From IMG/VR virus record IMGVR_UViG_3300029305_006397: a DNA stretch of 64,000 nucleotides, one strand, 5' to 3'. Source of the stretch: a virus. The position numbers and the translations under genes are program-made. Below are positions 3,125-41,711 of this stretch, in pieces (position 1 is the first letter of the stretch; every line of letters begins with the position of its first letter). The notes under the pieces were generated by a model. The model was given only the letters and a program-made list of their open reading frames with translations, had not been told where the DNA came from and searched no databases.

Positions 3125-3210
3125 TGGTGAATACAATTGGATTCGAACCAATGCTCGACGACTGAGCCAAAGGCATGGGCCGTCCGTGCTAACCGCTACA
3201 CCATATATTC
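3125..3210 (-). tRNA. noncanonical tRNA-like gene (86 nt) with 16-18 nt anticodon loop (contains CAT)
   Basis: Acceptor GAATATA/TGTATTC, D-arm GTGT-AGCGGTTA-GCAC, T-arm ATTGG-TTCGAAT-CCAAT, encoded ACCA. The stem GACGG/TCGTC encloses CCCATGCCTTTGGCTCAG instead of a 7-nt loop. Confidence 0.45.
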
Positions 3211-3358: not shown

Positions 3359-3435
3359 TGGTGGGGGCCACAGGACTCGAACCTGTGACCGATCGGTTAT
3401 GAGCCGACTGCTCTGACCAACTGCGCTAGACCCCC
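3359..3435 (-). tRNA. tRNA-Met (anticodon CAT; could be Ile2 or initiator)
   Basis: Acceptor GGGGGTC/GGCCCCC, loop CTCATAA, T-loop GGTTCGAGTCC, encoded CCA. Confidence 0.85.
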
Positions 3436-3814
3436 ATATGTAATGCCCCTGGTTGTATTAAATACATATGCATATGGATAGCTACGTCCCGCGAAGGAGT
3501 ATTCGCGTGTATGCCTGACTTAAATCACGGACTCCAATTGTATTACTATGTGACGCATACTTTCGTTTTTATCCGCTATCTGGACGGGGCAGGTTAAGCG
3601 ATAACCTATGCCTTTCGACAACCCAGCCTCTAATAAGAGGCTGACGCTCATGGCCTAATGTCCTGTTTCAACTCGCCATGACGAGCAATCACCTGCAAGA
3701 ATCGAACCTGCCTGGAAGTCAAGCTTCCTTTACTGCCGCCCAGAAGTGATTAAGATGGATTGTTTGACTTTAATTTGATAAGCGGAGGCCAAACAACCAA
3801 ATTTCTCTCACGAT

Positions 3815-3900
<86 letters not shown>

Positions 3901-4537: not shown

Positions 4538-5713
4538 TCAAGCTTCTGCTTTAAAATTATAGATGGGTTTAAAACGATCTACGATATCTACGGTTGGGCC
4601 AATGCAATTAATAATTTCCTGATAATCCTTGTAAACAAAAGGAGCTTCATCCAAGGTTGATTCATTAATGCATGTGGAATATATGCCATTCATAGTTTCG
4701 GCATATTCTTCTACGGTAAATATCTTCTTTGCCTGTGCGCGAGAATACAGGCGACCAGCTCCATGAGGAGCAGAACAATTCCATTCGGTATTGCCCTTTC
4801 CTCTGCAGATCAAAAGACCATCACGCATATTAAGAGGAATTACAAGAAACTGACCTTGCTGCGCAGAGATTGCGCCTTTGCGCAAAATCATTTCTTTCAC
4901 ATTGATATAATTATGTACACTATCAATGCAATAATCGATTTCACCACCCATAGCAGATACGATTGTATGCAACATTATCCATCTATTCTGTTCAGCAAAT
5001 TCCTGTAGAATTGCAACGTCATGAAGATAATCATCCATGTCCTGTCCGGTAAGATAACAAAGATCGGGATCAATTGCGATATGATGTTCAGACAGCCATT
5101 GCTGGCGCATAACAGGTTCAATAAACTGCAGTTGCTCCATGCGCAAATTATAGTTGTATTTCTTTATGCGATTTACGGCGAGGTTCTGGTAGTATTGAGC
5201 CACTTTCAGGCCGATATTGCGACTGCCTGAATGAACAGCGATATATCCATTTTCATACGCTTCGATGAAATGGTTCCCACCTCCAAGAGTTCCAAGGGTA
5301 CACTTTGCCCTTTCCTGGGTCGCTTTATCCAATTTGTCCCAGCACCGCAATTCTTCGAAATCTCGTTCCCATACCTTCTCAGTCGAATGTACATCCATAC
5401 CAAACGGAATACTAGATCGGATAGCGGCGTCCAATTCATCAAGGCGAGAATCAAAATCAATATTGGTTTGTACAAGTGATACACCACAACCGATATCTAC
5501 GCCAACCAAATTCGGGCATACCTTATCCGTGATATGCATAGTAGTACCGATTACACAGCCAGCTCCGGCATGGGCATCCGGCATGATTCGAATATGTGCG
5601 TCCTTACCCAAAGGAGAATCCGCCATCTTTTTAATTTGATCGATAGCTTGATCCTCAATTGTCTTAGCATAAATGACGACATCATCACCATGGGTAGACT
5701 TATATATTTTCAC
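4538..5713 (-). CDS. rtcB: RtcB-family RNA 3'-phosphate/2',3'-cyclic phosphate to 5'-OH ligase
   Basis: 391 aa with RtcB hallmarks: MPDAHAGAGCVIG, GGGNHFIE, HSGSRNIG, SAPHGAGR. GTG start follows AAGGTGA. Confidence 0.9.
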   Translation of the reverse strand: MKIYKSTHGDDVVIYAKTIEDQAIDQIKKMADSPLGKDAHIRIMPDAHAGAGCVIGTTMHITDKVCPNLVGVDIGCGVSLVQTNIDFDSRLDELDAAIRSSIPFGMDVHSTEKVWERDFEELRCWDKLDKATQERAKCTLGTLGGGNHFIEAYENGYIAVHSGSRNIGLKVAQYYQNLAVNRIKKYNYNLRMEQLQFIEPVMRQQWLSEHHIAIDPDLCYLTGQDMDDYLHDVAILQEFAEQNRWIMLHTIVSAMGGEIDYCIDSVHNYINVKEMILRKGAISAQQGQFLVIPLNMRDGLLICRGKGNTEWNCSAPHGAGRLYSRAQAKKIFTVEEYAETMNGIYSTCINESTLDEAPFVYKDYQEIINCIGPTVDIVDRFKPIYNFKAEA

Positions 5714-26639: not shown

Positions 26640-26884
26640 AAGATTCTTCCTCCTATCTTTTGATAACGGATTCATGGGAGCGTTAGCGATACACCTTTAT
26701 AACCGGATGGGCAAGGCCGCTATTCTGTGATTCTTAATCTACTCTTCAGGTTAAACCCTTATGTTACCATCGGTTCCCAATCATTTAAGGCCATCCCAGG
26801 TCTTGATTCGCCTCCGTCTATCTTTCAGCGCACCCACTACTTTAGATATGTGGTGTGTAGCTTTAACCAGCCGAAGCTGGCCTA

Positions 26885-28306: not shown

Positions 28307-28396
28307 CCTACGACACAAGCGGAAGGAAAGATAGGAAGGAAGAAAACCTTCCGCTTGTCATTTCGGCTGGTTGCCGTCCAGCTCTCGTCAGGTAGG
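28307..28396 (-). ncRNA. type-I hammerhead ribozyme (HH-a)
   Basis: Minus-sense CCTAC-CUGACGAG-[GCTGG/CCAGC]-CGAAA-[12-bp stem III]-GUC/GTAGG. All core nucleotides are present and stem I is CCTAC/GTAGG. Predicted cut is between 28312 and 28311. Confidence 0.75.
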
Positions 28397-28594
28397 TGTG
28401 GTTAATTTGAATGATTTGGTAGTCAATGCTGCCAGCTTTTGTTCGCAAGCGGTGTAGCTACCTCTATAAATGGTTTTCCAGTTATAACGGCATCTGCCGC
28501 CAACAGTGTAGAATCGTCTTTCTTTGAGTTCCCATACAGGCTTCAGGTCAAAGCCAATCGTTTCAGAAATTACATATCTTGCTTTGTTAGCCAT
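28388..28594 (-). CDS. hypothetical protein (68 aa)
   Basis: Track ORF. GGAGGC SD. Its UGA stop is the UGA of the hammerhead CUGA core. Confidence 0.6.
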   Translation of the reverse strand: MANKARYVISETIGFDLKPVWELKERRFYTVGGRCRYNWKTIYRGSYTACEQKLAALTTKSFKLTTPT

Positions 28595-28830: not shown

Positions 28831-28897
28831 TCCACGACACAGCCGGAATTTTCCGACTATGTTTCGACCGGGCATCACCCGGTTCTCGTCAGGTGGA
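28831..28897 (-). ncRNA. type-I hammerhead ribozyme (HH-b)
   Basis: TCCAC-CUGACGAG-[ACCGGG/CCCGGT]-CGAAAC-[10-bp stem III, GGAAAAUUCC apex]-GUC/GTGGA. Cut is between 28836 and 28835. Confidence 0.8.
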
Positions 28898-28900
28898 TTG

Positions 28901-29062
28901 TTACTTGAGTTCCCATTTTTCCATCCACGGCTCTCCTTGCCGATCATACTTATCTGCGTACATTCGATCAAGGGCTTCCTGCGCTTTCTTTTCCGATGAA
29001 TAGATTTCTCTGATTCCTTCGTCACCATAGCAGCCGGACATGATAACGTAAACGTACTTCAT
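28901..29062 (-). CDS. small ORF (53 aa)
   Basis: Not in the track. AGGAGG 5 nt before the ATG. Its TAA stop is 3 nt before HH-b. Confidence 0.45.
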   Translation of the reverse strand: MKYVYVIMSGCYGDEGIREIYSSEKKAQEALDRMYADKYDRQGEPWMEKWELK

Positions 29063-29287: not shown

Positions 29288-29383
29288 AAGTGTTTCCTCC
29301 TATCTTTCCTTATGCGTTTGGCTTTAGGGGCTTGTGACCTTATGCCTTGCCGCATTAACAGGGCTTATGCCCTGCCACTCTGC

Positions 29384-29569
29384 TTAATCTCGATTGGAAA
29401 GCTCCGTGTGATAGATATGCACACTCTGAAGGCGTCTGCTTCCAAATTTCCGTCGAAATTCCTCTTTCGCATCTTTCATGTTTGCCTTGCTACCGTTTCG
29501 ATGATCGCTTACATACTCAAATTCTCCGTAATCGTGACCATCATCATAAAGCGCAATGTAGTTTTTCAT
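29384..29569 (-). CDS. hypothetical protein (61 aa)
   Basis: Track ORF. AGGAGGC SD. Confidence 0.55.
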   Translation of the reverse strand: MKNYIALYDDGHDYGEFEYVSDHRNGSKANMKDAKEEFRRKFGSRRLQSVHIYHTELSNRD

Positions 29570-30027: not shown

Positions 30028-30082
30028 GTATGTTTCCTCCTATCTTTTCCTTATGGTTTCCATGGATATTTCCATGGGGTTT

Positions 30083-30150
30083 CCCACGACGCTCTCAGGA
30101 TTTTCCATCAAGCGTTTCGGTTGCTAACCGGGCAGCCATCATCAGGTGGG
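30083..30150 (-). ncRNA. type-I hammerhead ribozyme (HH-c)
   Basis: CCCAC-CUGAUGA-U-[GGCUGC..GCAACC]-GAAAC-[stem III with GGAAAAUCC apex]-GUC/GTGGG. The stem II closing pair is noncanonical. Cut is between 30088 and 30087. Confidence 0.65.
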
Positions 30151-30151
30151 G

Positions 30152-30355
30152 TTAAAAAACGAATCCGGCATAAACCATCTTGTTTCCGTCCAGCATCCTC
30201 CATGCGTTAGCATCGTCCCATGCCGTACAACAGTAACGTTTTTCCGACCTGTCATATTCGCCGCGGATATAGACCCGATTTGCAGACTCTTTCAACTTGA
30301 AAAATTCTCCATGCTTCAGGTCTTTCAGCTTGTACATTCCTGCATCTCTTTCCAT
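30152..30355 (-). CDS. hypothetical protein (67 aa)
   Basis: Track ORF. Its stop is 1 nt before HH-c. Confidence 0.55.
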   Translation of the reverse strand: MERDAGMYKLKDLKHGEFFKLKESANRVYIRGEYDRSEKRYCCTAWDDANAWRMLDGNKMVYAGFVF

Positions 30356-30721: not shown

Positions 30722-30757
30722 GATTTTCCTCCTATCTTTTCCATGTGGTTTTGACTT

Positions 30758-30823
30758 CCCACGACAGGCCAGCTCAAGGCCAGCCTGTTTCGGCTCGTTG
30801 TCAACTCGCCATCGTCAGGTGGG
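30758..30823 (-). ncRNA. type-I hammerhead ribozyme (HH-d)
   Basis: CCCAC-CUGACGA-U-[GGCGAG..CGAGCC]-GAAAC-[9-bp stem III CAGGCUGGC/GCUGGCCUG]-GUC/GTGGG. Cut is between 30763 and 30762. Confidence 0.7.
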
Positions 30824-30828
30824 TATGC

Positions 30829-31290
30829 TTACCATTCCTCCAATTCTTCCTCCAGATCGGCGATTTCTTCCTCCAGATCATCGGCATCCGACTGGTAATT
30901 GCTTCTCCAGATTGCCATTCTCAGGCTTTCGATTTCTTCCTCGTCCAGCTCATTCATTCCGGCAAGCTCACGATTGGAATTGATTTCGTCGATTTGTTCC
31001 TCGACTTCTTCTTCGTAACTTTCCTTGAGTTCTTCCAGCTCGTACTGTTTTTCTTCCAGTTCGGCGCGGATAACTTTCTCGGAACGGATTCCAACCCATT
31101 CATACACGGATTCCGGCTCAAACCAAAGCAGATCATTTAGACCAGTTTCGGTCATTCCATCCGGGTACAAATCCTCCAGAACAGCCTCCAGCTGCGCACA
31201 TTTTCCGGCGTTGCGTACACGATCAAGGGTATCGACAGCTCCAGACCATGCCTCGAAAGTTTCCAAATCAAGCTCGTATGTGATTTTCAT
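30829..31290 (-). CDS. hypothetical very acidic protein (153 aa)
   Basis: Track ORF. SD GGAAGGGG. Confidence 0.65.
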   Translation of the reverse strand: MKITYELDLETFEAWSGAVDTLDRVRNAGKCAQLEAVLEDLYPDGMTETGLNDLLWFEPESVYEWVGIRSEKVIRAELEEKQYELEELKESYEEEVEEQIDEINSNRELAGMNELDEEEIESLRMAIWRSNYQSDADDLEEEIADLEEELEEW

Positions 31291-31397
31291 TGTAAAATTC
31301 CCCTTCCTATCTTTCCAAATGATTGACAGGAAGGGGCAAACTATGATATATTTCTGTATAGGAAGGGCGGAAGGAAATTCCCTCCACCCCCATGCGG

Positions 31398-31481
31398 TTA
31401 GATTTCGTCCGGGTTATCCGTGGCGCGAATAATCCCATCAGACCACATCCAGCCGTATTTAGTCCGATACAGGGCTTTCAT
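31398..31481 (-). CDS. possible micro-ORF (27 aa)
   Basis: AGGAAGGAGGA SD plus ATG directly after the bidirectional terminator. Confidence 0.25.
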   Translation of the reverse strand: MKALYRTKYGWMWSDGIIRATDNPDEI

Positions 31482-31505
31482 GGCGGTTGTCCTCCTTCCT
31501 ATCTT

Positions 31506-31555
31506 TTTATAAAAAGCGGTCTTGTGTTGGTAGCACAAGGCCGTTTTTATCTTTT
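31506..31555. terminator. bidirectional intrinsic terminator
   Basis: 10-bp stem CGGTCTTGTG/CACAAGGCCG (one mismatch), flanked by an A-run on one side and TTTTTATCTTTT on the other. Confidence 0.6.
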
Positions 31556-31766
31556 AAAGCCGTTTTTTCTACGATACGGCAAAACGCTTGACCCATGCTA
31601 TATGGGAATGAATCGGGGTTCAAGGGATTGCCCCGGTCGCCTCCAGCCGTGTTCTTACATGCCGCTGGACACAGGTAGCCTGCATAATCATCTCATTCTC
31701 CGGCTACAGAGTTTTGCGCGGTTTCGATAGACGCACATTTATTGGCGGTTGCTATCGGGAATGGTT

Positions 31767-31828
31767 AACCCAGACCAGCCCATGTGGGCGTGGTTTCGTC
31801 GCAATTTTCAGCGACTCGTCAGTGGGTT
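31767..31828 (-). ncRNA. type-I hammerhead ribozyme (HH-e)
   Basis: AACCCA-CUGACGAG-[UCGC/GCGA]-CGAAAC-[stem III]-GUC/TGGGTT. The UGA of the core is the stop codon of 31819..32016. Cut is between 31773 and 31772. Confidence 0.8.
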
Positions 31829-32016
31829 TCAGGGTATTCCATTGCTATGGCTCTGACGGCTTCAATATCCGTCAACATTCCTCTTTCATATACGCGCAAA
31901 ATATTTTCTATGCGTGTTTTTCTTAATTCTTTGATAGACGTTAACATTAACGTATTTTCTGCATCTGTCTGAAGCATATCTTGCGCAAACTCATGCACAT
32001 AGCGTTTTCTTCTCAT
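31819..32016 (-). CDS. hypothetical protein (65 aa)
   Basis: Track ORF. SD GAAGGGAAGG. Its stop is embedded in HH-e. Confidence 0.6.
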   Translation of the reverse strand: MRRKRYVHEFAQDMLQTDAENTLMLTSIKELRKTRIENILRVYERGMLTDIEAVRAIAMEYPETH

Positions 32017-32038: not shown

Positions 32039-32107
32039 CCATACCCACGCCCCGGCAGGGCGTGACGCTCACGGCTTAAATGGCTTTTTATAGTCGCCGT
32101 GACGACT
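32039..32107 (-). ncRNA. pistol ribozyme (Pistol-f)
   Basis: AGUCG-UCACGG-CGACU hairpin. The loop is complementary to the downstream CCGUGA (pseudoknot). Then GCG, P3 UCACGCCC/GGGCGUGG, G/U, AUGG pairing with CCAU. Same spacing as the env25 pistol as I recall it. Cut is between 32044 and 32043. Confidence 0.75.
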
Positions 32108-32418
32108 CAGACAATTATGCAGCGTTTGAACGGATTTTCGCAGGGGTCGCAACCGAAACCGAAATTTTCTCCGTATATATCGATATACTGAAGTCCAGCG
32201 AATTTGCCGTTCTGAATGGTTTTTAACTCCATTGTAGCGCGGCGCATAGCCTGTTTTGCCTGTTTAATGGTTACGTCGTCGATATTGTAGAATCTGTTTA
32301 GCTTGTTTTGAATTTTATTCAAGAAATTCATTGCAAGGTCATTTGTAACATTCTTTTTATCGGACTCCATGAAACAGTCAAACCCGTATGCACGAAGATA
32401 AAAACCCTGTTTTTTCAT
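32107..32418 (-). CDS. hypothetical protein (103 aa)
   Basis: Track ORF. SD GGGAGGG. The last base of its TGA stop (A, 32107) is the first base of pistol P1. Confidence 0.6.
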   Translation of the reverse strand: MKKQGFYLRAYGFDCFMESDKKNVTNDLAMNFLNKIQNKLNRFYNIDDVTIKQAKQAMRRATMELKTIQNGKFAGLQYIDIYGENFGFGCDPCENPFKRCIIV

Positions 32419-32441: not shown

Positions 32442-32507
32442 TTGAACCCGCCCCAAACGGGGCGACGCTTTGGGCCTAATCAACTATTTAAAGTCGCCCA
32501 AACGACT
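32442..32507 (-). ncRNA. pistol ribozyme (Pistol-g)
   Basis: AGUCG-UUUGGG-CGACU-UUAAAUAGUUGAUUAGG-CCCAAA-GCG-UCGCCCC-GUUU-GGGGCGG-G/U-UCAA. The linker UUAAAUAGUUG is identical to the env25 pistol as I recall it. The pseudoknot and P2 covary with Pistol-f. Cut is between 32447 and 32446. Confidence 0.8.
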
Positions 32508-32763
32508 AAACGCGCATTACATTGTCAAGATAAATGCGCATTGCACCCTTACGAATATATGCCCGACCTGCCGTCGAATAGTGGACTTTATGACGATGAA
32601 AACCCACATATCCTTCAGGGTTAACCCATGCCGCAATATAATCGCATTCGAATTTATCGCCGTCGTCGGGTTCCCAAAGTGCAACGCCGAAACAGTTGGA
32701 AAAATGGCAAACGCCAACCGGGGCAATATTAGAATAACGCTTGTAAAGTGCTACATTTTTCAT
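32506..32763 (-). CDS. hypothetical protein (85 aa)
   Basis: Track ORF. SD GAGGGAAGG. Its TAG stop overlaps pistol P1. Confidence 0.6.
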   Translation of the reverse strand: MKNVALYKRYSNIAPVGVCHFSNCFGVALWEPDDGDKFECDYIAAWVNPEGYVGFHRHKVHYSTAGRAYIRKGAMRIYLDNVMRV

Positions 32764-32797: not shown

Positions 32798-32852
32798 CAC
32801 CCGACGCCCGGCAGGGCGTTTCGTCTTAATTTTCAAAGACTCTTCAGGGGCG
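32798..32852 (-). ncRNA. type-I hammerhead ribozyme (HH-h)
   Basis: CGCCC-CUGAAGAG-[UC..GA]-CGAAAC-[GCCC-UGCC-GGGC]-GUC/GGGTG. Cut is between 32803 and 32802. Confidence 0.8.
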
Positions 32853-32855
32853 TTA

Positions 32856-33176
32856 TTATCTCAAGTTGTCGTTATATGCAATATCCCTGTTTTTGATTGC
32901 AATTTCGATTCGCTTTTTGCTAACGTCGCCGCCGAAAATGTGACGGGCGTATTCGCGCAAAAACTCATAGAGATATTTTGCGGTTGTATTGGAGTAACAC
33001 CAATTCCGACCCAAAGTCAACGCCGCCGCGCCCTGCGCGTCATAATCAACGATTGCAATAACGCTGTCATAAGACTGGAAAATAACAGCATTATTGGAGT
33101 GAATGATAAACTGGTTTGCAACGGGGCGACCACTTCGGGGGGATACCATGTTCCTAACACTTGCATATTTCATCAT
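32856..33176 (-). CDS. hypothetical protein (106 aa), first gene of the ribozyme-punctuated operon
   Basis: Track ORF. SD GGAAGGTG. The 18-nt motif lies about 25 nt upstream. Confidence 0.6.
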   Translation of the reverse strand: MMKYASVRNMVSPRSGRPVANQFIIHSNNAVIFQSYDSVIAIVDYDAQGAAALTLGRNWCYSNTTAKYLYEFLREYARHIFGGDVSKKRIEIAIKNRDIAYNDNLR

Positions 33177-41378: not shown

Positions 41379-41711
41379 TTATGTTATCTATTTCCCAACA
41401 TACTGTCATGCGTGGGTGGAATAAGAAGAGACGGGCGTTTTCGGTCGGCATAAACCGAAGTTTGGCATTTGAGGTCAAATGAGTTTGATGAATGCAATCC
41501 CGTGCTGCTATGCGGTATTTGCAGGAGAACAACAGGGGTTTGCGTATAACCACAAGGCAGCTAGGTACAATCCGAAAGAAAAACGGTTATAAAGGGCGTC
41601 CCGCCACCTATATCCCAAGTGTGGAACGATAAAGCAGGTGTTTCGCTGCCTATAAATGCGAAATTTAATCAGCTCCGTGTTGGATATTTTGACATGCGGA
41701 GCATTTTATAT

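Follow-up and report, generated by a model that had tools for sequence, protein, structure and literature searches.

Several hammerhead ribozymes process polycistronic RNAs of phages and prophages (PMC3088659; PMC6765202), and the arrays of Clostridium scindens, Azorhizobium caulinodans and Agrobacterium tumefaciens cleave both in vitro and in Escherichia coli (Perreault et al. 2011, PMC3088659). Pistol and twister ribozymes also have hammerheads and phage genes as neighbours (Harris et al. 2015, PMC4604425), and the role of all three classes in bacteria and phages is still called an open question in reviews (PMC6155905; PMC6765202). Here we describe a 64,000-nucleotide (nt) stretch of viral DNA (IMG/VR record IMGVR_UViG_3300029305_006397, hereafter the window) whose minus strand carries nine ribozymes between approximately 33.2 and 27.9 kilobases (kb), namely six hammerheads, two pistols and one twister (Table 1). 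Relative to the end of the upstream open reading frame (ORF), stop codon included, all nine start within the interval from −10 to +5 nt. As in the published prophage arrays (PMC3088659), several type I hammerheads lie between co-directional phage-type genes; the present locus differs in that nine ribozymes of three classes are found within 5 kb, and that paper makes no mention of the stop codon. The pistols and the twister likewise resemble the published ones, being Rfam-level members in a phage neighbourhood that holds other ribozymes, although the published accounts of these two classes (PMC4604425) give neither a function nor a fixed position relative to ORF ends. No description of an overlap between stop codon and ribozyme, or of a positional rule, was found in the literature searched, which did not include the original twister and pistol discovery papers. 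The locus is a new and unusually dense case of the ribozyme arrays known from phage RNAs.

Two further systems offer a comparison. In the early messenger RNAs (mRNAs) of phage T7, RNase III cuts between cistrons, and the upstream mRNA retains a stable hairpin at its 3’ end. The outcome at the present locus would be the same, except that the RNA would cut itself, without a host enzyme, and end in a 2’,3’-cyclic phosphate and a 5’-OH. Synthetic insulators of the RiboJ type place a ribozyme upstream of a ribosome-binding site and yield a defined 5’-OH leader that is independent of context; RiboJ is an engineered part of the 5’ untranslated region, whereas here most of the ribozyme bodies remain with the upstream gene.

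The stop codons of the array take several forms: the UGA of the hammerhead core in two cases, a UAA followed by a gap of 3, 1 or 5 nt in three, a tandem UAA UAA that abuts stem I in one, and a stop that overlaps the ribozyme by 1–2 nt in the pistols and the twister. ORF 28388..28594 ends in ACA CCU ACC UGA CGAG (UGA at 28390–28388), and a reading of the minus strand together with the ORF table confirms that this UGA is U4-G5-A6 of the hammerhead core CUGACGAG and that the last codons make up stem I, as the original prediction had it. The stretch CCUAC is the 5’ strand of that stem and pairs with GUAGG 80 nt downstream, with cleavage predicted after C17 at 28312. The coordinates agree equally for ORF 31819..32016, which ends at the core UGA inside the hammerhead 31828..31767, while Rfam supports the further claim that P1 of both pistols begins with the last base or bases of the preceding stop (the A of UGA at 32107, and the AG of UAG at 32507 and 32506). 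These four cases, the ones singled out at first, are the tight end of an array-wide pattern.

A terminating ribosome keeps approximately 5–7 nt unwound and covers approximately 9–10 nt past the stop codon. The premise that it must clash with the ribozyme holds more broadly than had been claimed, since the 5’ helix is within its reach in 9/9 array ribozymes and in about two-thirds of phage type I hammerheads (see below). Given this footprint and the overlap, stem I or P1 must open at termination, and ribosome occupancy and the folded helix are mutually exclusive; where the core UGA serves as the stop, the start of stem II is opened too. Such an arrangement could in principle act as a switch, a generalised form of the original proposal: a ribosome on the upstream stop would melt stem I or P1, and the separation of the cistrons would depend on translation status, either because the RNA is cut only when the upstream ORF is untranslated or because the ribosome ejects the 3’ product and makes the cut irreversible. 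The physical overlap itself is certain in all of these cases, and both core stops in the window are UGA-C, a weak termination context in E. coli that could lengthen the dwell of the ribosome. A single-turnover ribozyme, however, needs a single ribosome-free interval, and a brief occlusion may cost it little. Together with the survey results described below, we regard a translation-gated switch as unlikely.

The window hammerheads are genuine by motif, with a full core and three stems, and their self-cleavage is predicted, at 28312, 28836, 30088, 30763, 31773 and 32803. All six have CUGA(C/U/A)GA, GAAA and U-C at the cleavage site (two carry an extra U between A9 and stem II), and their helices measure 5–6 base pairs (bp) in stem I, 5–8 bp in stem II and 6–14 bp in stem III, with stem I open and stems II and III closed by loops. 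They were identified by a motif-plus-stem descriptor instead of Rfam; a stricter first version of it matched four of the six, compared with approximately 0.25 matches per shuffled window. Both pistols are full-length Rfam matches above the gathering score, including P1, P2, P3 and the conserved linker. The array ORFs are probably translated, judging by their Shine-Dalgarno sites and by public gene calls, which give the same ORF ends on identical metagenome contigs. Reassignment of UGA to sense was ruled out, as no suppressor tRNA occurs among the 22 tRNAs of the window and TAA, TAG and TGA all terminate ORFs of the array. No relatives of ORFs 28388..28594 and 31819..32016 were found in IMG/VR, and the former, the only one of the two compared with a protein database, returned a single cluster at 97% identity. 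The ORFs are carried by 14 metagenome contigs (L001–L014); 13 of these cover the compared stretch of ORF plus hammerhead, in which they do not differ at any base.

The hammerhead core offers UGA in one reading frame of three. Its use as the stop in 2/6 window hammerheads equals the random-frame expectation (P(≥2/6 | 1/3) = 0.65), and it is in frame in 4/6 (P(≥4) = 0.10), twice as the stop and twice as a back-up 3–4 codons later. Taken alone, the window gives no sign of a preference for the core UGA; what stands out is adjacency to the stop.

To place the array in a wider context, IMG/VR was surveyed with DNA patterns for hammerhead-, pistol- and twister-like stretches that are blind to the upstream sequence, followed by stem-checking descriptors. 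The upstream stop was taken as that of the longest upstream ORF of at least 40 amino acids, redundancy was reduced by clustering the upstream proteins only, and counts are among the matches listed (the first 120 stretches per collection scan). The type I set comprised 142 unique hammerheads, of which 137 had enough flank, their upstream proteins falling into 126 clusters. The upstream stop was the core UGA in 31 of them and lay within −15..+1 of the core C in 96/142, with 13, 13 and 15 stops at −8, −9 and −10 (41 together). Measured from the end of the stop to stem I, the gap had a median of 0 nt (quartiles −9 and +6) and fell at −12..+3 in 85/129. On the 3’ side, a median of 22 nt separated the hammerhead from the next start codon (interquartile range 17–35).

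This placement next to the stop is far beyond chance. At decoy CTGA sites in the same loci the stop of a long ORF fell on that UGA in 7.8%, compared with the observed 22.6% (31/137, p = 5e-8), so that roughly one in three members of the core-UGA class may be a chance ORF; the stop lay at −15..−1 in 3.4% of the decoys and in 45% of the hammerheads (p = 3e-53). Intrinsic terminators and attenuators obey the principle that a ribosome at the stop blocks RNA folding within approximately 10 nt downstream. The same physics applies here. Among 606 terminator-like hairpins from these loci, however, the start lies at a median of 21 nt past the stop and 4% fall at 0–3 nt; such hairpins avoid the neighbourhood of the stop, and the type I hammerheads and pistols do not. 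That type I hammerheads lie so much nearer to stops than hairpins that avoid this position speaks for a ribosome-gated switch.

The reading frame of the core UGA is less informative. Under the naive ORF rule the frame classes of the surveyed type I hammerheads were 47/27/25, with the core-UGA in-frame class enlarged above one-third, as the switch would have it. When a Shine-Dalgarno site was required and read-through ORFs were included, the classes became 30/25/16 (p = 0.11), and the effect was weaker for longer ORFs (p = 0.11–0.56 across these Shine-Dalgarno-supported sets). The excess was not robust and was dropped as evidence. Neither did the core-stop class show any bias at N7, the base that completes the tetranucleotide stop context, which also speaks against the switch. 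Within the in-frame class, approximately two-thirds reach the core UGA rather than an earlier stop (31 versus 18 under the naive rule; 20.2 versus 10.0 after Shine-Dalgarno filtering and cluster weighting). The data fit a simple account in which an ORF that happens to arrive in the right frame uses the ribozyme’s UGA, and nothing further would be required.

Stop codons built into ribozymes recur in three classes. Among 23 pistols outside the window, the stop was within 9 nt of P1 in 16, and in four the last A of UAA was nucleotide 1 of P1. Twisters had a stop within −13..+6 of GCAGAG in 47/109 (about 43%), including a UAG whose G starts GCAGAG in 6/109 and an internal GCAGAG-UGA in 7/109 (L356, L367, L371 and others). 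For the switch, the pistols cut both ways: P1 is a persistent hairpin, and yet it lies nearer to stops than free hairpins do, which leans towards a switch; it does not, however, hold the 3’ product, and ribosome-driven product release cannot be the common logic.

Type III hammerheads provide the key contrast. They cut near their 5’ end and the body leaves with the downstream RNA; in type I hammerheads and in pistols the cut is close to the 3’ end, and the body stays on the upstream mRNA. The type III set comprised 104 unique members, 96 with an upstream ORF (73 clusters), and these start at a median of 29.5 nt past the stop (interquartile range 20–36). Placement at −12..+3 was found in 2/96 of them; the type I count is 85/129 (Fisher p = 4e-26). 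Of the type III ribozymes, 53/104 are preceded by a perfect hairpin of 6 bp or more whose end lies 0–3 nt before the hammerhead, compared with 0/137 of the type I ribozymes; these GC-containing hairpins start at a median of 7 nt past the stop. Both the spacing and the hairpin point to the 3’ end of the upstream mRNA, rather than contact with the ribosome, as the selected feature. Ribosome contact is no shared requirement if one class avoids the stop, which weighs against the switch. The steric part of the original proposal is therefore real and general, but the step from there to regulation finds no footing in the placement of type III hammerheads or in the frame excess, and a regulatory switch is plausible but unsupported. 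There is also a broader form of it, in which type I hammerheads, pistols and many twisters across phage operons would have been selected to lie in the footprint of the terminating ribosome, which would time or license the cut or drive the release of the downstream fragment, with the embedded stops as its signature; we give this coupling of cleavage to termination a low probability as well.

We favour, as the probable reading, that the ribozymes serve to make and cap the 3’ end of the upstream mRNA and are packed against the ORF. Self-cleavage would cut the polycistronic transcript at the ribozymes, leaving an upstream cistron that ends in a stop codon, a short spacer, the folded ribozyme body and a 2’,3’-cyclic phosphate, and a downstream RNA that starts with a 5’-OH leader; these cleavage positions and end chemistries are those expected from the respective families. 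The body of a type I hammerhead or pistol would then be the 3’ terminal structure of the upstream mRNA, likely protecting the new end, and abutting the ORF would cost nothing. Once the 3’ product is lost, the CUGANGA core would become a single-stranded spacer together with the 5’ strand of stem I, so that the ORF can extend through both. The first persistent helix would be stem II, at a distance of 12–16 nt if the stop abuts the ribozyme and of 3 nt if the stop is the core UGA, and the core UGA would be the last stop available ahead of the stem II hairpin. Stops embedded in ribozymes would represent the tight end of a general packing rule, used when the ORF comes in the right frame. The terminating ribosome would briefly melt stem I or P1, a clash that may be tolerated because one folding event is enough for a single-turnover ribozyme. 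Type I and type III hammerheads would converge on the same product, an upstream mRNA that ends in a stop, a short spacer, a stable structure and a cyclic phosphate.

The hammerhead 31828..31767 illustrates the point. It is followed by approximately 220 nt of non-coding RNA and then by a strong 17-bp bidirectional terminator-like hairpin (31512–31548), beyond which lies a 27-codon ORF (31398–31480, minus strand) with a strong Shine-Dalgarno site. With no cistron directly behind it, this ribozyme seems to belong to the end of the gene before it. The 263-nt stretch from the cut site through the hairpin (31510–31772) was considered as a structured non-coding RNA and rejected (fold z = −1.5, no Rfam match).

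Several points weigh against the 3’-end reading. The 5’ gap of type I hammerheads is tight even where the 3’ gap is loose (15/24 versus 73/103), which is not what simple compaction of the whole gap predicts and is also in keeping with a switch. Pistol P1, a persistent hairpin, sits 0–3 nt from the stop or overlaps it, whereas none of the free hairpins before type III hammerheads lies at 0–3 nt; the idea that persistent structure stays outside the reach of the ribosome fails for pistols. The survey ORFs come from a simple longest-ORF rule and not from a gene finder, the ribozymes from custom descriptors, and the patterns bias which subfamilies were sampled. All six window hammerheads, finally, score under the Rfam gathering thresholds (best 18–26 bits against 34–56 for RF00163, RF03152 and RF00008). 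At E ≤ 10 only two of the six were listed, the one at 31828..31767 matching RF03152 and RF00008 weakly, and the whole-window Rfam search at the gathering threshold or at E ≤ 1 called none of them. Those models have short stems or an additional 5’ hairpin absent from the window copies.

Three positional rules follow from these data. Where the cleavage site is close to the 3’ end, the ribozyme touches the stop of the gene before it or overlaps that stop. Type III hammerheads, with their cleavage site close to the 5’ end, keep approximately 30 nt of distance, and a hairpin precedes half of them. In about a fifth of phage type I hammerheads the ribozyme itself provides the stop codon. These rules suggest a concrete task, to form the 3’ end of the upstream mRNA and to cap it, and they make ribosome-gated cleavage directly testable; if that coupling were true, the fate of each cistron would depend on the translation of its upstream neighbour. 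For gene calling and RNA annotation in phage genomes, a practical consequence is that short overlaps of ORFs with ribozymes are to be expected.

A different account treats the ribozyme sequences as recombination joints that shuffle small ORFan genes between phages, with each ORF merely continuing to whichever stop comes first at the joint and the core UGA as a catch-all stop in one frame. ORFan genes are indeed flanked by ribozymes here, the stem II sequences GCUGGACGGCAACCAGC and GUCUUUGAAAAUUAAGAC and the stem I CCCAC/GUGGG recur in unrelated phage contigs, the upstream proteins of the core-UGA class are very diverse, and a conserved extended Shine-Dalgarno motif, AAGATAGGAGG, follows several of the ribozymes. 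The near-identical contigs, however, show no mosaicism at this scale, and such cassettes would leave the hairpin ahead of type III hammerheads unexplained, making this account improbable.

Table 1 Features of the window (all coordinates refer to the window unless a locus is named)
Feature	Coordinates	Strand	Remarks
Type I hammerhead	32798..32852	−	Directly after tandem UAA UAA of ORF 32856..33176; core UGA in frame, a third stop
85-residue ORF	32506..32763	−	Stop UAG 32508–32506; A and G (32507, 32506) are nucleotides 1–2 of pistol P1
Pistol	32442..32507	−	Rfam RF02679, 68.4 bits (gathering score 34.5); probable cleavage site G32447/U32446
103-residue ORF	32107..32418	−	Stop UGA 32109–32107; its A (32107) is nucleotide 1 of the pistol
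Pistol	32039..32107	−	P1 AGUCG...CGACU; Rfam RF02679, 67.9 bits (gathering score 34.5); probable cleavage site G32044/U32043 from the family consensus
65-residue ORF	31819..32016	−	Ends GAA ACC CAC UGA CGAG; UGA 31821–31819 is in the hammerhead core
Type I hammerhead	31767..31828	−	Stem I AACCCA/UGGGUU, core CUGACGA; predicted cleavage after C at 31773
Type I hammerhead	30758..30823	−	Extra U after A9; 5 nt past UAA of ORF 30829..31290
Type I hammerhead	30083..30150	−	Extra U after A9; 1 nt past UAA of ORF 30152..30355
Twister, type P5	29325..29384	−	Rfam RF02684, 50.9 bits (gathering score 37.6); nucleotide 1 (29384) is the final A of the UAA stop of ORF 29384..29569
Type I hammerhead	28831..28897	−	3 nt past UAA of ORF 28901..29062; core UGA in frame downstream
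68-residue ORF	28388..28594	−	ATG, AGGAGG Shine-Dalgarno site; also called on public contigs
Type I hammerhead	28307..28396	−	Stem I CCUAC/GUAGG, core CUGACGA, stem II, GAAA, long stem III; full-core descriptor match
AAGATAGGAGG sites	26649–26659, 29296–29306, 30036–30046, 30728–30738, 31303–31313, 31495–31505	−	Motif match
RtcB RNA ligase, full-length	4538..5713	−	Pfam E = 3.8e-63; adjoins tRNA array
971-residue protein, Pfam ‘RdRP’ PF05183	36427–39342	+	E = 4e-10
Pistol, third	3617–3686	−	61.6 bits; between tRNA-Leu (3815–3900) and tRNA-Met (3359–3435)
RAGATH-36 RNA	839–1000	−	73.2 bits
drum RNA	41483–41590	+	62.1 bits
tRNA with two-base ‘anticodon (ca)’	3125–3210	−	ARAGORN; Rfam tRNA score 46.9 bits
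Type III hammerheads with preceding hairpin, examples	L028 8376–8426; L100, L191, L193, L195, L210, L225	− (L028)	Surveyed loci

The window is that of a phage, encoding a large terminase, an integrase, the RtcB ligase and a single-subunit RNA polymerase of the YonO/crAss type; the PF05183 match of the 971-residue protein is the signature of such enzymes. Some of the phage genome is probably transcribed by this enzyme, which might be relevant to why RNA ends would be set by ribozymes and not by terminators. Megablast of the region against GenBank phages returned no match. Between approximately 33.2 and 20 kb, small genes with strong Shine-Dalgarno sites are densely packed on the minus strand, co-directional with all nine ribozymes, which lie in the intergenic gaps. 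Most junctions measure 1–15 nt, and the longer ones between 28.3 and 32.9 kb hold one ribozyme each. Every ribozyme occupies nearly the entire gap and ends approximately 15–45 nt before the next start codon, leaving room for a Shine-Dalgarno region. Two strong minus-strand hairpins with U tracts (31539–31521 and 27908–27887) suggest at least two transcription units. In a scan that does not cover the promoters of YonO-like polymerases, neither the promoter-like matches (18 compared with 12.7 ± 3.1 in shuffles) nor the terminator-like ones (15 compared with 9.6 ± 3.5) exceeded the shuffles.

RtcB joins 2’,3’-cyclic-phosphate and 5’-OH ends, the kind that self-cleaving ribozymes make. With the enzyme encoded in the same window, the phage might rejoin or circularise ribozyme-made fragments, the overlaps between ORFs and ribozymes being part of that design; hammerheads 30150 and 30823 have an identical stem I, so that the piece released between the two cuts could assemble into a nicked hammerhead again. 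The gene, however, adjoins an array of 12 tRNA genes, and for an RtcB in such a place the usual explanation is tRNA repair; other fragments are interrupted by the twister and the pistols. We consider ligation very improbable as the reason for the overlaps.

The third pistol of the window lies within this tRNA array and has no upstream ORF, which indicates that ribozymes of this phage also sit in tRNA precursors. A RAGATH-36 RNA and a drum RNA, families whose function is not known, lie in or beside the two tRNA arrays of the window. The tRNA at 3125–3210 may be unusual or contain an intron.

Some further features of the hammerheads deserve mention. The stem I CCCAC/GUGGG is shared by hammerheads 30083–30150 and 30758–30823 and is also present in the unrelated phage contigs L029 and L048. 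Hammerheads with a stem II of the form GUCUUUGA(A/G)AAUUAAGAC nearly always have (U)AA directly 5’ of stem I, often as the stop codon (32798–32852 in the window; L020, L051, L071, L076, L094, L163, L199, L205 and others); this could reflect a tertiary contact with loop UUA or merely an AT-rich context. At the hammerhead 28897–28831, when 60 nt of preceding sequence are included, the predicted minimum-energy fold (28897–28935, minus strand) pairs GUGGAU, in coding sequence approximately 30 nt upstream, with the 5’ strand of stem I, AUCCAC, possibly a competing hairpin that translation would open, or a chance pairing. Finally, start codons are repeatedly preceded by the extended Shine-Dalgarno motif AAGATAGGAGG, in many cases directly after a ribozyme; the window has eight matches at up to one mismatch (0.9 expected), six of them on the minus strand before start codons.

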